In this document: piece by piece, positions 3,450 to 50,815 of the stretch
How positions within the stretch are numbered: the first letter of the stretch is position 1
Layout of the letters: each line of letters opens with the position of its first letter
Source: a virus
Lineage: Duplodnaviria; Caudoviricetes
IMG/VR virus record: IMGVR_UViG_3300044825_003095
Location: 1-60,305 of that record
Length of the DNA stretch: 60,305 nt
Strand: one strand, 5' to 3'
Notes under the pieces: generated by a model
Database searches by the model: none
The model's input: the letters and a program-made list of their open reading frames with translations, nothing else
What the model was told of the DNA's origin: nothing
Position numbers and translations under genes: made by a program

Positions 3450-3749
3450 TCATGCGAACAATGCCCGCAGCGCCTTTGCCTCTTTGGCCATGTCCTCGCG
3501 GGCCAGTTCCTTCGCCCACACCTTGCCACCAGCGGTGACGATGGTGAGGTACACGGGGCGTCCAAGGTCGTCGTCTCGGATCGGCTCGGATACGGCGAAT
3601 CCGCCAGCGAAGAGAACTGGCGGCAACACGTTGAGGCAGTAGTCCGCCTCTTCGGGCTTCGCGCGCACCCATGCGGGAGAGTGCTTGGCGCGATCCCAAA
3701 CCCATCCTTCGGGCTCGGCGTCGATGATGGTTGCGGTTGTCGTGGTCAT
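3450..3749 (-). CDS. Early hypothetical protein
   Basis: MTTTTATIIDAEPEGW...YCLNVLPP...FAVSEP, a phage-like motif. Confidence 0.7.
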   Translation of the reverse strand: MTTTTATIIDAEPEGWVWDRAKHSPAWVRAKPEEADYCLNVLPPVLFAGGFAVSEPIRDDDLGRPVYLTIVTAGGKVWAKELAREDMAKEAKALRALFA

Positions 3750-4725: not shown

Positions 4726-4762
4726 GTCTCGTCTCCTACCGGCCGGGCCGGGGGTGGGTGGG

Positions 4763-5095
4763 TCAGTGAGTCGATTCGTCCATCGCGGCGATGTCGGGCC
4801 GGTTGGCGGCAAGCCACGCTTCAGCCTCGTCGGGGTCGATCGTCACCTCGTAACAGGGGGCGTCGATCACGCGGAATGCTCCGATCCATTCGTGCAGCAC
4901 CTCAAGATCGGCGAAGAACTTGGTGATTTCCTCGCTAGTCTGCTCGGACCCGATCGCGTCGGCCTCCGAGCAGCCGGTCCACCCCTCCTCGCGGAGAGTG
5001 TCGATCGTTCCCTGAGTCGCGGTCATCAGGTGCGGCGCGGCGTCGAATTCGATGGACTTCACGCCCCAGTCGTCGGTGAGAGTTGCTTTCAGCAT
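4763..5095 (-). CDS. Early hypothetical protein, paralog of 2671-3012
   Basis: SD GGGAGA; alignable by eye with 2671-3012. Confidence 0.75.
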   Translation of the reverse strand: MLKATLTDDWGVKSIEFDAAPHLMTATQGTIDTLREEGWTGCSEADAIGSEQTSEEITKFFADLEVLHEWIGAFRVIDAPCYEVTIDPDEAEAWLAANRPDIAAMDESTH

Positions 5096-47208: not shown

Positions 47209-47423
47209 GCCCCGATCCTATCGCACGGAAGGCCGCGCCGTTCGACCCAGCCCGCCAAGGCGTCCACAATCTCGGGCGGAAGCCCGTTGAACTCCACCGA
47301 CGGAACCCCGCCGTCGTCGGCGAGCTTGACCGTCAGCGTGCTGTGGCCCCGCCCTCGCGTCAGCCGTATCTCCGTGGCGTGGCCGCGGACGATCCTCGCC
47401 TCGAACCGGGTGATCTTCTTCAC
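47205..47423 (-). CDS. Small hypothetical protein
   Basis: SD AAGGAGA, GTG start. Confidence 0.6.
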   Translation of the reverse strand: MKKITRFEARIVRGHATEIRLTRGRGHSTLTVKLADDGGVPSVEFNGLPPEIVDALAGWVERRGLPCDRIGA

Positions 47424-47977
47424 GCCGTCTCCTTGACCGCGCACCAGTCGCTCGCCGCGGCCCTGGCCAGCGTGCCGGGGTCGGTGGCCGCGACCGCGAC
47501 CGCCAGCGCCGCCCAGTGGTGCGTGGAGATGCACGACAGCGGTCCAGGCATGGCGACGATCTTCTTCGCCTTGTTGCCCTTCACGCCGAGCGCCTTGGCC
47601 TCGCCGCCCCACATCAGGATCAGCTCCTCGCGCACGCGCTTGTCGTCGGCCGCCGAAGTCCCGCAGAGGAACTCCTTCACGAAGCGGCGCCGGATTCCGA
47701 CGACCCCGATTTGGCTTGGAGCAAAGGCCAGCCGCTCGACCAGCCGTCCCGTCTCGAACACGGTCCTGAACGACGCATCGCTCAACGACTGGCCGCGCGG
47801 CTCGAACTGCTCGAACGCCACGAGCGGCCGATCGTCAGAACAGGTCGCCGATCGCAGTTGCGACAGCATGGACAATTCGTTCACGATGTCCGCGGTCCAC
47901 TTCCTCCGATCCAGCCGAACGATCGCATGCGACGTCGGACTCGGATCGACTCCGTAGATGATTCCGGAGTCGATCAT
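47420..47977 (-). CDS. ruvC: RuvC-like nuclease/resolvase
   Basis: IYGVDP...VAFE...TVFETG...VKEFLCG...D...WAALAVA. Confidence 0.8.
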   Translation of the reverse strand: MIDSGIIYGVDPSPTSHAIVRLDRRKWTADIVNELSMLSQLRSATCSDDRPLVAFEQFEPRGQSLSDASFRTVFETGRLVERLAFAPSQIGVVGIRRRFVKEFLCGTSAADDKRVREELILMWGGEAKALGVKGNKAKKIVAMPGPLSCISTHHWAALAVAVAATDPGTLARAAASDWCAVKETA

Positions 47978-48684
47978 CGCGTCGCGTCCTCCGTTGCCGC
48001 CGGCGCCTTGCCGTCCCCGACGAACTCCCACGGGCTGATGTGCGTCTGGTGGCCCAGGTACTCGATCGCGTACGGCGCCCGCAGCGGAAGCCCCTCGAGC
48101 TCCCGCCACACGTGCAGCAGGTGCGACAGGAACATCTTGGCGATGTACCGCAGCGCCATGTTGTTGATGCGCCCGAGCGACCACTCCGGAACCTCCTTCG
48201 GCGGCGGCGGGATCACGGCGCCGTCCGGGGCGTGCGCCACCTTCCACTTCACCCCGGCCTCCTTGCGGCCAGTCTCGTCGTCGAGGATCTCCTCGCCGGT
48301 GGCGCCGCCGGCCTTCCAGATGATGCTGCCCTTGTTCAGCTCCCGCTCGACGATGCGCGCCTTGTAGCGGTCGTACAGGTCGCGGTACGGCCCGCCGGCC
48401 TTCACGAACGACTGCGCGATCTTCCACGCCGTCACCTTGAGCTGGTCGTTCCAGTTGGACTTCGCGCCCTTGCGGCGGCGCACGCACCGGCCGTCGATCA
48501 CGTGCAGGCCCGCGTACGCCCACAGCTTCGCGGCGTTGTCGAACTTCGCCGGGCTGCCGATCAGGGCGATCAGCAGGCCGCTCAGGCGCGGTCCGATGCC
48601 GCGCACCTTTCCGAGCGCAAAGGTTCGCAAGCGTTCTTCGGGTGGCAAGTGATCCGCGGCTATCACTGGGGCTTTGGGCGTCAA
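47974..48684 (-). CDS. Nop/IS110-like RNA-binding protein (TIGR-associated TasA-like), N-terminally truncated or minimal
   Basis: VRGIGP...LIALIG...F..AAKLWAYAGL...RRRKG...NWN..LK...Y..YK...ALRYIAKMFLSHL..VWRELEGLP...PY...YLGH. No N-terminal coil or DEDD domain, no clear SD. Confidence 0.8.
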   Translation of the reverse strand: MTPKAPVIAADHLPPEERLRTFALGKVRGIGPRLSGLLIALIGSPAKFDNAAKLWAYAGLHVIDGRCVRRRKGAKSNWNDQLKVTAWKIAQSFVKAGGPYRDLYDRYKARIVERELNKGSIIWKAGGATGEEILDDETGRKEAGVKWKVAHAPDGAVIPPPPKEVPEWSLGRINNMALRYIAKMFLSHLLHVWRELEGLPLRAPYAIEYLGHQTHISPWEFVGDGKAPAATEDATR

Positions 48685-48773
48685 GTCAACAATGGATCAC
48701 AAATGGACTTCTGGTTGCATGGTTTTATTGGTTCGCAACGTCGAAACGGGAGACACTTCTTCTTTGGCTACGG
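48621..48773 (-). ncRNA. TIGR-like tandem dual-spacer guide array (four 36-nt units)
   Basis: 9-nt TG-N4-CC-N repeats alternate with unique 9-nt spacers at exact 18-nt period, abutting the Tas-like gene. Confidence 0.82.
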
Positions 48774-49571
48774 CTGCGGCAGGGCGTCCCAGTCCAGCAG
48801 CCACTCGACGCACAATCGCGTCTCCGCCTCGGCAGTTCCGGGCGGCACAAGTCCGTGCGACTCGGCGTCCTGCGTCCCGGCGCTCCACAGCCACAGGCGG
48901 TCCTCGGCGTGCCGCGCCCGAGACATGAACTCCCACTGCGTGAGCAACGGCTCGTTCCACTGGCCCAGCCGGTGCTGGCACACGACGAGCACGCGGGCAA
49001 GGTCGGGAAGGTGCCTCGCGGCCCACTCCATCGCCAGGCGGTCGCGGGCGTCCTCGATCGCCGTGTTGCCGACGTACTGGTCGTAGCCGCGCACGCACAC
49101 CCACCCCTGCATGCGGGAGAGCATCATGTGCCGCGCCCACCGCTCCTCGAGCTCGAGCAGCTCGGCGACCGTGGCCGTCAGCAGCGACTTCCACACCGTC
49201 CCGTCGCCGACCGGGAAGTACATCGGCACGTCGTCGATGGACCACTGCGCCAGCTTCGCGCCGGTGCGCATGCCGTCGTTCATGGAGAACGGGAGCATGA
49301 GCTCGTACAGCGCGGGCTCGTAGCCGGCCTGCGCCTTCGCCAGCGTCTCGTCCTCGCGGTCGATGAACGCAAGTTCGCCGCACGGGATCGACGACAGCGC
49401 CTCGGCCAGCTTGCCGACCTGCACGACGCCGCCGACCTTGAGGTTGTGCCAGTAGACCGCGCGGCCGAGGCGAACATCCACGCCGGAATCCCGCAACGGG
49501 TCGAACACCGCGCTCGGAACCAGCTTCGGAAGCTGGGCCTTGTCGAGCAGGTCCACGAACAGGGTTTTCAT
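48768..49571 (-). CDS. Hypothetical protein
   Basis: MKTLFVDLLDK..., coupled to the ATPase gene. Confidence 0.7.
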   Translation of the reverse strand: MKTLFVDLLDKAQLPKLVPSAVFDPLRDSGVDVRLGRAVYWHNLKVGGVVQVGKLAEALSSIPCGELAFIDREDETLAKAQAGYEPALYELMLPFSMNDGMRTGAKLAQWSIDDVPMYFPVGDGTVWKSLLTATVAELLELEERWARHMMLSRMQGWVCVRGYDQYVGNTAIEDARDRLAMEWAARHLPDLARVLVVCQHRLGQWNEPLLTQWEFMSRARHAEDRLWLWSAGTQDAESHGLVPPGTAEAETRLCVEWLLDWDALPQP

Positions 49572-50815
49572 GGCGCCACCTCGCCGCCGACCAGCCGGCC
49601 CTCTCGGATCGTGAACCCGACATCCTCGCCGTTGGTCACGAGCTCCCGCCAGATCTGGATCCCGTGCTCCGCGGCCAGCTTCGTCAGTTGGGCGACCGTC
49701 GCGTCGTCGCACAGCGACCCGTCGCGGATGAACATGACCTGCGCGTTCGGGTTCAGCGCCATGCCGACGGCGACGCTCACCGCGATCTGCTCCGCGGTCG
49801 AGCACTGGTCGAGCGGCGTGCCGTGCAGCGTCGGCCCGGCCTGCGAGAACGCCAACCCGTCGATGGGGAGCGCCGACTTCGCGAGCCGGCGACGCACCGA
49901 ATCCTCGAGCAGCTCCATCTCCGAGGTCATGTCCTCCGACTGCGCCTCCAGCGCAGCGACGGACTTCGCAAGCGCGTCGCGCTCGTTGTTCTGCCGCACC
50001 TTCGCGTTGTGCGCCTCGATCTCGCGCATGCGCTCCTGGATCGCCGTCGTCTCGCTGGGCGGATCGCCCTTCGCGGCCTCCGTCGCCTCGCGGAGCTTCT
50101 GCTCGTGCTCCGCCAGCTCGCGCTCGACGCCGCTCAACGCCTGCTTGAGCCGCTCGACATCCTCCCGCGACTTCGTCACCAGCCGCGACACGGTGTCGCG
50201 CTGCCGGATGCGGTCGTCGTACTCGCGACGCGCGGCAGCCGCCTTCTCGATCGCATCCCGCATCGAGTCGGCGCTGAGCTCGGCGTCGGCTCCCGGATGC
50301 CGCGGCATCGCGTCGAGCCGGGCCTTCTCCGACTTCACCCGTCGGTTCACGTCGGTCCTGCGCTCGTACAGCTCCTTCACGTCGGCCTGGTGCTTCTCCA
50401 GGTCGATGCCGCCGAGCCGGGCCAGCACGGCGTTCTGGTTGGCGGGCTTGTCCGAGATGAACGACACCGGGTTGAACGTGCGGTCGCCGAACAACCGCTC
50501 CAGCGCCTCCTGCCCGCGGCCGACGGTCGTGCCGTCGATGGTCCGCACCTTGAGGTAGTAGTTGCCCGCCTCCGTCCACTTGCCGACGGCGCGGAGGCCC
50601 GGCACGTCGAGCTCGACCTCCGCCTCCTCCGCGCCTTCGTGGATCGGCTTCGACGGATGCGACCGCTTTCCGAACACGACTGCCTCGACCGCCTTGAACG
50701 CCGACGACTTGCCGGCGCCGTTGGGGCCGCTGATCGTGACGACCGGACCCTGCGGCCTGATCTCGAGGTCCGTGAGTCCCATGAAGTTCGTGACCTTCAA
50801 CCGTTCGATTGGCAC
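49568..50815 (-). CDS. SMC/SbcC-like coiled-coil ABC ATPase
   Basis: Walker A GPNGAGKSS, coiled coil, CSTAEQ signature, MFIRDGS Walker B. Confidence 0.85.
   Translation of the reverse strand: MPIERLKVTNFMGLTDLEIRPQGPVVTISGPNGAGKSSAFKAVEAVVFGKRSHPSKPIHEGAEEAEVELDVPGLRAVGKWTEAGNYYLKVRTIDGTTVGRGQEALERLFGDRTFNPVSFISDKPANQNAVLARLGGIDLEKHQADVKELYERRTDVNRRVKSEKARLDAMPRHPGADAELSADSMRDAIEKAAAARREYDDRIRQRDTVSRLVTKSREDVERLKQALSGVERELAEHEQKLREATEAAKGDPPSETTAIQERMREIEAHNAKVRQNNERDALAKSVAALEAQSEDMTSEMELLEDSVRRRLAKSALPIDGLAFSQAGPTLHGTPLDQCSTAEQIAVSVAVGMALNPNAQVMFIRDGSLCDDATVAQLTKLAAEHGIQIWRELVTNGEDVGFTIREGRLVGGEVAP

Follow-up and report, generated by a model that had tools for sequence, protein, structure and literature searches.

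The window analysed here, i.e., the whole 60,305-nt stretch of record IMGVR_UViG_3300044825_003095, is a complete phage genome of 60,305 bp with direct terminal repeats, and the features described below lie in a tightly packed run of minus-strand genes (Table 1). In the direction of reading, an SbcC-like ATPase gene is followed by a 267-aa ORF that has no match in Pfam or PHROG and whose start ATG overlaps the stop of the ATPase gene, by a short low-GC stretch holding a repeat array, by a truncated-looking tas ORF, and finally by a gene for a RuvC-like Holliday junction resolvase, which is recognized by its PHROG profile and has no match in Pfam. The resolvase ATG overlaps the tas stop as ATGA, and this overlap suggests translational coupling of the resolvase to whatever is translated upstream. 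TasR proteins carry a RuvC domain fused at their N-terminus, whereas here the RuvC-like gene is a separate ORF downstream of tas. Because the genome is complete and yields a single tas match (to residues 75-257 of the full-length homolog P0006), no separate piece encoding a tas N-terminus lies elsewhere in it. Farther along the same strand, between 30800 and 37300, the window holds one open frame of 2,167 codons (GC3 0.95) that presumably encodes a giant phage protein.

Table 1. Features of the tas region, members of the 90%-identity cluster of its protein, and related arrays. Positions are those of the window unless a contig is named.
Feature	Position	Strand	Remarks
SbcC-like ATPase gene	50815..49568	-	upstream of the 267-aa ORF
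267-aa ORF	49571..48768	-	between the SbcC-like ATPase gene and the array
Low-GC stretch			150 nt between the 267-aa ORF and the tas ORF; GC 0.50-0.58 vs ~0.70; holds the repeat array
Residual degenerate dual-repeat TIGR array	48621..48755	-	eight 9-nt repeats, 18-nt spacing
tas ORF	47974..48684	-	236 aa
Open-frame extension through the last repeats	48616..48684	-	23 codons preceding L24; probably not coding
Candidate in-frame starts in the extension	TTG 48684, GTG 48666, TTG 48648, TTG 48630	-	
Deletion junction	48616..48617		last position common with the long allele; equals W86/L87 of P0099
Retained 3' part of tasA	47974..48615	-	L24-R236 plus stop; C-terminal (RNA-binding) part of the Nop domain
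RuvC-like Holliday junction resolvase gene	47420..47977	-	phrog_1770, E 5.2e-05
Cluster member, IMG short form			218 aa; on the 60,305-nt record
Cluster member P0098, IMG short form			218 aa, one residue changed; on a 6,612-nt contig
Cluster member, Logan short form			230 aa; on a 24,687-nt contig
Cluster member P0099, full-length			299 aa; seen on 11 Logan contigs
Arrays with near-identical TGCGAGCCA edge	L001 3356-3751; L002 4746-4925; L003 3626-3769; L007 4728-4889; L082 3574-3843		

The array consists of eight 9-nt sites of the form TG....CC that lie exactly 18 nt apart on the minus strand, from 48755 to 48621, whereas the longest comparable run in 200 shuffles of the window comprised three sites. 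Loop-like and edge-like repeats alternate along it, separated by 9-nt spacers; the published definition of TIGR arrays, as given in the available text of Faure et al. (2025; PMC12045711), specifies two alternating repeats of 8-12 nt, spacers of 9 nt, a UG start and a CCA end, with repeats that are conserved within a locus and vary across loci. All eight repeats in the window begin with TG and three of them end with CCA. Their mean within-class identity (0.65 and 0.67 for the two classes) is lower than that of seven related arrays (0.78-1.00); spacers, by the same measure, reach 0.26-0.44. The TGCGAACC type of edge matches edge repeats on three related contigs (L001, L003 and L016). No second array was detected elsewhere in the genome, and the three spacer pairs, searched in both tandem arrangements with up to four mismatches, had no match in the genome outside the array that would indicate self-targeting. 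A stem-loop type of array was considered and rejected, the RNA fold of 48590-48770 (minus strand) being no stabler than that of shuffled sequences (z = +1.22). Scanning of 47300-49700 returned no sigma-70 promoter-like site, by a consensus that may not be that of the host, and, close to the array, no minus-strand terminator.

The protein encoded next to the array belongs to the Tas family. Searches with phmmer matched it to TasR (9mty_A, E 1.2e-26; query residues 22-110 to chain residues 173-262 and 169-218 to 269-318) and more weakly to TasH (21kl_A, E 4.8e-10), and a profile built from the family alignment A1 matched TasR 9mty (E 1.7e-53), TasH (E 2.9e-29) and the IS110-family recombinase IS621 (8wt6, E 1.2e-05). 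Pfam recognized only Transposase_20 (residues 26-101, E 3.3e-05), with neither a fused HNH or RuvC nuclease domain nor, in the ORF, the N-terminal DEDD (RuvC-like) domain that IS110 transposases have fused to a Transposase_20 domain with the catalytic serine. Its close homologs, at 260-300 aa, have a coiled coil only and no DEDD domain. Since the protein has no nuclease domain, we assign it to TasA, whose members are described as RNA-guided repressors in the available text of Xu et al. (2026; bioRxiv 10.64898/2026.09.09.750476); the system itself is of a known kind, TIGR-TasA. IS110-family recombinases share the Nop-like RNA-binding fold, but the window protein lacks their DEDD/RuvC domain, has no bridge-RNA locus, and matches them far more weakly than it matches Tas. 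AF2 models the full-length homolog P0006 (pLDDT 87.9) with a helical hairpin (H2-30 and H36-65) ahead of the GIGP motif, and Foldseek matched this model to TasR 9mty (E 5.5e-13) and also to TasH.

How an intact locus of this type is laid out can be seen in the three closest viral loci, in which dual-repeat TIGR arrays with 9-nt spacers stand directly upstream of tas. Their repeats comprise an edge of the TGCGAGCCA type and a loop of TGTATCCCA, TGAAACCCA or TGAAAACCA; each array closes with a terminal edge repeat that is cut short (TGCGAACC in L001 and L003), followed within ~10-35 nt by a Shine-Dalgarno (SD) motif and the start codon. Because arrays end just upstream of the SD and the tas start in all three, the adjacency of array and gene is ancestral. 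A strict periodicity scan detected such arrays in 10 of the 25 related loci checked.

In the window, similarity of the tas ORF to its relatives sets in abruptly. A protein search with the ORF product returned 96 relatives, mostly of 260-300 aa, and all 18 homologs in alignment A1 have sequence ahead of the VRGIGP motif: in 17 this region is complete at 70-90 aa and includes a conserved pattern around YDAQKLRIQ, and in the remaining one (P0024) it spans ~50 aa. Where these homologs carry their N-terminal region, the window ORF offers 23 unrelated residues. ORF residues 26-222 correspond to positions 104-275 of the 277 in the phrog_4285 profile, so that ~100 profile positions have no counterpart, and in each of the three closest viral loci the tblastn match starts at query residue 24. 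The codon for this conserved residue, L24, starts at 48615, and the last unit of the array ends at 48621, leaving a gap of ~5 nt.

The 23 codons that precede L24 run through the array, where the frame is open across the last three to four repeats because the repeat period of 18 nt equals six codons. They bear no similarity to any aligned homolog or to the full-length allele described below, and their GC3 is 0.61, compared with 0.97 in the rest of the gene; judged from their composition and alignment, these array-borne codons are probably not coding. Each repeat in the open stretch supplies an in-frame TTG or GTG, and the frame is closed upstream by an in-frame TGA (48699..48697) inside the repeat at 48701..48693. 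By our count this repeat is the second TGCGAACC-type edge; it becomes the third once a weaker unit lying farther upstream is included. No SD motif lies at -18..-5 of any of the five in-frame starts of the ORF (48684, 48666, 48648, 48630 and 48606); in a rough tally, 24 of 35 high-GC3 frames of this genome have an SD-preceded start. Gene callers differ in their choice, with IMG predicting 218 aa from TTG 48630 and Logan 230 aa from GTG 48666.

An earlier note on this stretch, made without database searches, had already described homology that begins abruptly just behind the array (at ~6 nt by its count), an in-frame TGA within an edge repeat, and the lack of a visible SD, and our results bear out these observations. 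The insertion of ~50 aa that it also reported is real but is not peculiar to the window protein: 16 of the 18 aligned homologs carry an insert of some length at this site, P0048 and P0059 have none, and the solved TaTasR has ~4 residues there. In the AF2 model the insertion folds as a beta-hairpin (E122-134 and E141-151). The model of the short protein as a whole has a pLDDT of 83.9, a confidence driven by the alignment, and homodimer prediction on the short protein scored 0.00 in two runs, both made without controls, a score that counts neither for nor against dimerization.

The 90%-identity cluster of the window protein has four members, one of which, P0099, is full-length. Residues 87-299 of P0099 are identical to residues 24-236 of the window protein at 212 of 213 positions (99.5%), and P0099 carries 86 further residues at its N-terminus, identity between the two proteins beginning exactly at L87/L24. 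These extra residues align to the coiled-coil region only: residues 27-86 of P0099 align to chain residues 125-172 of TasR 9mty_A, and the window protein aligns to the same structure only from chain residue 173.

We followed the long allele at the nucleotide level by aligning Logan contigs (contigs, not raw reads) to window positions 47400-49600. One contig of 6,842 nt (X5), from wastewater in another study, differs from the window at 16 positions over 47400-48616 and then departs from it: it contains 818 other letters where the window has 77, matches 48694-48737 with 4 differences, adds 97 more letters, and continues along 48727-49600 with 23 differences. Between flanks that are ~97-99% identical to the window, the contig thus holds 959 letters against 110 in the window (849 more, placed between the upstream gene and codon L87), and its second offset is exactly 108 nt, i.e., three 36-nt units. 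The contig also covers the resolvase gene. Its link to P0099 rests on matching length together with a shared A-to-V change: a G>A difference at 47999 yields A229V, which is the sole amino-acid difference of P0099 from the window protein. Within tas, the window and the long allele differ at six nucleotides, five of them synonymous. Once 258 nt (86 codons) are subtracted, ~700 nt are left, which would accommodate ~19 units and a leader. At least the first three residual repeats are also present in the array of the long allele (40 of 44 letters alike), so part of the repeat degeneracy is a feature of boundary units and not decay after the deletion. Database searches, from which records very near the window may be excluded, gave no exact 27-mer match in viral_contigs, no relative of P0099 in viral_contigs or genome_contigs, and three loci at most 51% identical to the window protein in metagenome_contigs.

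By this comparison, the N-terminus missing from tas, which a full-length allele of 99.5% identity retains, was removed by a deletion, and the segment lost from the window is, by alignment, the one homologous to the coiled coil of TasR. The earlier note had offered deletion or misassembly as alternative causes of the short gene, and it is the deletion that holds up, given P0099 and the 959 letters in place of 110. An assembly artefact, in which collapse of array repeats removed real sequence from the record, would be the least probable of the readings considered here. Short tandem repeats do collapse easily, and one 1,433-nt contig (X4) ends at 48686, inside the array; however, this contig provides no depth over 48584-48657 and says nothing about the junction. 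The right breakpoint of the deletion lies in unique coding sequence and not in a repeat, and the same junction is covered with no differences by two Logan contigs of 24,687 nt (X1) and 692 nt (X3, 48559-49250), both of which may come from the source sample of the window. Moreover, the short N-terminus is the same in P0098, which is encoded on the IMG contig of 6,612 nt and has one residue changed. Misassembly is therefore an unlikely source of the short junction.

Other irregular joints were seen among the aligned contigs. Two of them (48303>49350 and 48983>49035) have sides of only 20-21 letters and probably come from other organisms. A third joins 49164 to 48277 through an identical 26 letters in X4 and X5, which derive from two wastewater runs, and may represent another organism that shares short GC-rich stretches.

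We consider it likely that the locus is what a strain-specific deletion left behind, with at most read-through transcription, poor translation and no capacity for RNA-guided binding; this reading follows from a protein that starts at or after the repeats and is without the whole coiled-coil domain. As reconstructed from relatives, the ancestral layout would have consisted of the array, a terminal edge repeat, the SD and start, the 86-residue coiled-coil hairpin, and the C-terminal Nop part. A deletion of ~850 nt in this phage lineage took the 5' 86 codons of tasA with the start codon, and presumably also the ribosome-binding site and most of the array, cutting the latter from roughly 19 units to about 4 by our estimate. 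What remained, the C-terminal Nop part, is fused in frame to a few degenerate boundary repeats by an accident of the 18-nt period. We infer that the remnant would be poorly translated or not translated at all. TasR dimerizes (C2) through its coiled coil, on which the guide-target duplex rests, and a single 36-nt tigRNA extends across the two protomers (Faure et al., 2025; PMC12045711, in its available text); the coiled-coil domain for this C2 dimer is absent from the window ORF in the alignment to 9mty. The remnant protein, if made, would be expected to be unable to form the C2 dimer that holds one tigRNA and two target strands, and the locus would for this reason no longer work as an RNA-guided DNA binder.

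Several observations speak against a mere relic. The 213 retained codons are intact, and five synonymous differences out of six would fit a very recent deletion but would equally fit continued constraint. The short allele is present in at least three assemblies, and in one of these its product has an amino-acid change (P0098), so the allele persists in populations. In-frame TTG and GTG codons could serve as starts, two gene callers do call the gene, and the predicted structure of the short protein is a confident one. In addition, viruses can keep Tas derivatives without a coiled coil, since a clade of this kind has been described (Xu et al., 2026; bioRxiv 10.64898/2026.09.09.750476, in its available text). 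Much the same evidence would favor a C-terminal-only Tas fragment that is expressed, from an internal TTG or GTG or by read-through, and has taken on a new role. Such a fragment might bind box C/D-type repeats as a monomer and serve as a decoy against the tigRNAs of rival phages; alternatively, its frame might be kept because its translation couples to the overlapping resolvase gene, as the ATGA overlap would permit. We regard this reading as unlikely, however: none of the candidate starts has an SD, all of the nucleotide differences may predate the deletion, and the variant P0098 has I in place of the S of RLSGLL, a position at which most aligned homologs have S or A (n = 1). That the short allele is a natural, monomeric, C-terminal-only Tas, serving as a tigRNA decoy or representing a first step toward the array-less clade without a coiled coil, seems to us less likely still.

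The earlier note had also raised the idea of a working minimal Tas whose guide array forms the 5' end of its own mRNA, such that processing of the array would stop translation of the protein. It fits this idea that the frame is open through the last repeats, each with a potential start, and that arrays within the 5' region of tas are known from other systems (Xu et al., 2026; bioRxiv 10.64898/2026.09.09.750476, in its available text). Several findings nevertheless speak against the idea, and we hold it to be very improbable. A relative that encodes a normal N-terminus, which the note itself had named as decisive against the idea, exists in P0099: a 99.5%-identical allele with the usual 86 residues. 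Residues before VRGIGP are likewise universal in the aligned homologs (18 of 18, with the full region in 17), and the part that was lost is the domain that provides dimerization and supports the duplex. The residual repeats are degenerate, few of them ending with CCA, and the array-borne codons have the low GC3 and the lack of an SD noted above. Finally, 24 consecutive codons without a stop can readily arise by chance.

Seen as a deletion relic, the locus can be placed among known systems, of which it most resembles the dual-repeat TIGR-TasA loci of Faure et al. (2025; PMC12045711): as far as the available text describes them, these share a phage-borne Nop-domain protein without a nuclease domain and, directly upstream, alternating 9-nt TG...CC(A) repeats with 9-nt spacers. 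The locus in the window differs from them in having neither the coiled-coil domain nor the native start, and in retaining only ~4 degenerate units. From the P0099 allele of near-identical phages it differs in its N-terminus, P0099 having 86 N-terminal residues of which the window has none; the retained part is identical at 212 of 213 positions. Three further comparisons draw on the available text of Xu et al. (2026; bioRxiv 10.64898/2026.09.09.750476). A divergent viral Tas clade described there has neither the coiled-coil domain nor arrays; like the window protein, its members are Tas derivatives in dense viral genomes without a dimerization domain, but they form an old, long branch of compact TasR with RuvC, whereas the locus in the window represents a recent TasA deletion with the intact allele still circulating. 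Arrays inside tas coding sequences are known as well, their units lying in disordered linkers of complete Nop domains. The locus in the window resembles these in having tigRNA-like units within the 5' end of an open frame, but here array and frame overlap as a side effect of the loss of a domain by deletion. Lastly, it has been proposed that 5' arrays in tas may couple tigRNA maturation to Tas translation. Both this link between maturation and translation and viral Tas without a coiled coil are thus already in print.

The result is mostly a correction: the apparent minimal Tas led by guide RNA derives from a normal TIGR-TasA locus by deletion and for that reason should not enter catalogues as an architecture of its own. 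Among near-identical phages, some have the intact locus (~19 units, by estimate, and a 299-aa TasA) and others the remnant, which shows that phages can dispense with TIGR-TasA and that natural populations do lose it. The long and short alleles form a matched natural pair in which the contribution of TasA to the phage could be tested, and if the short allele did prove to be a C-terminal-only Tas, the same pair would be a natural experiment on the C-terminal part of Nop alone.

Among the related contigs, the edge repeat TGCGAGCCA is nearly identical in several whose Tas proteins are 40-56% identical to that of the window, while the loop repeats differ (Table 1). On one of them, L002, array units flank tas on both sides (~3540-3740 and 4746-4925); those upstream are irregular and escaped the strict periodicity scan.
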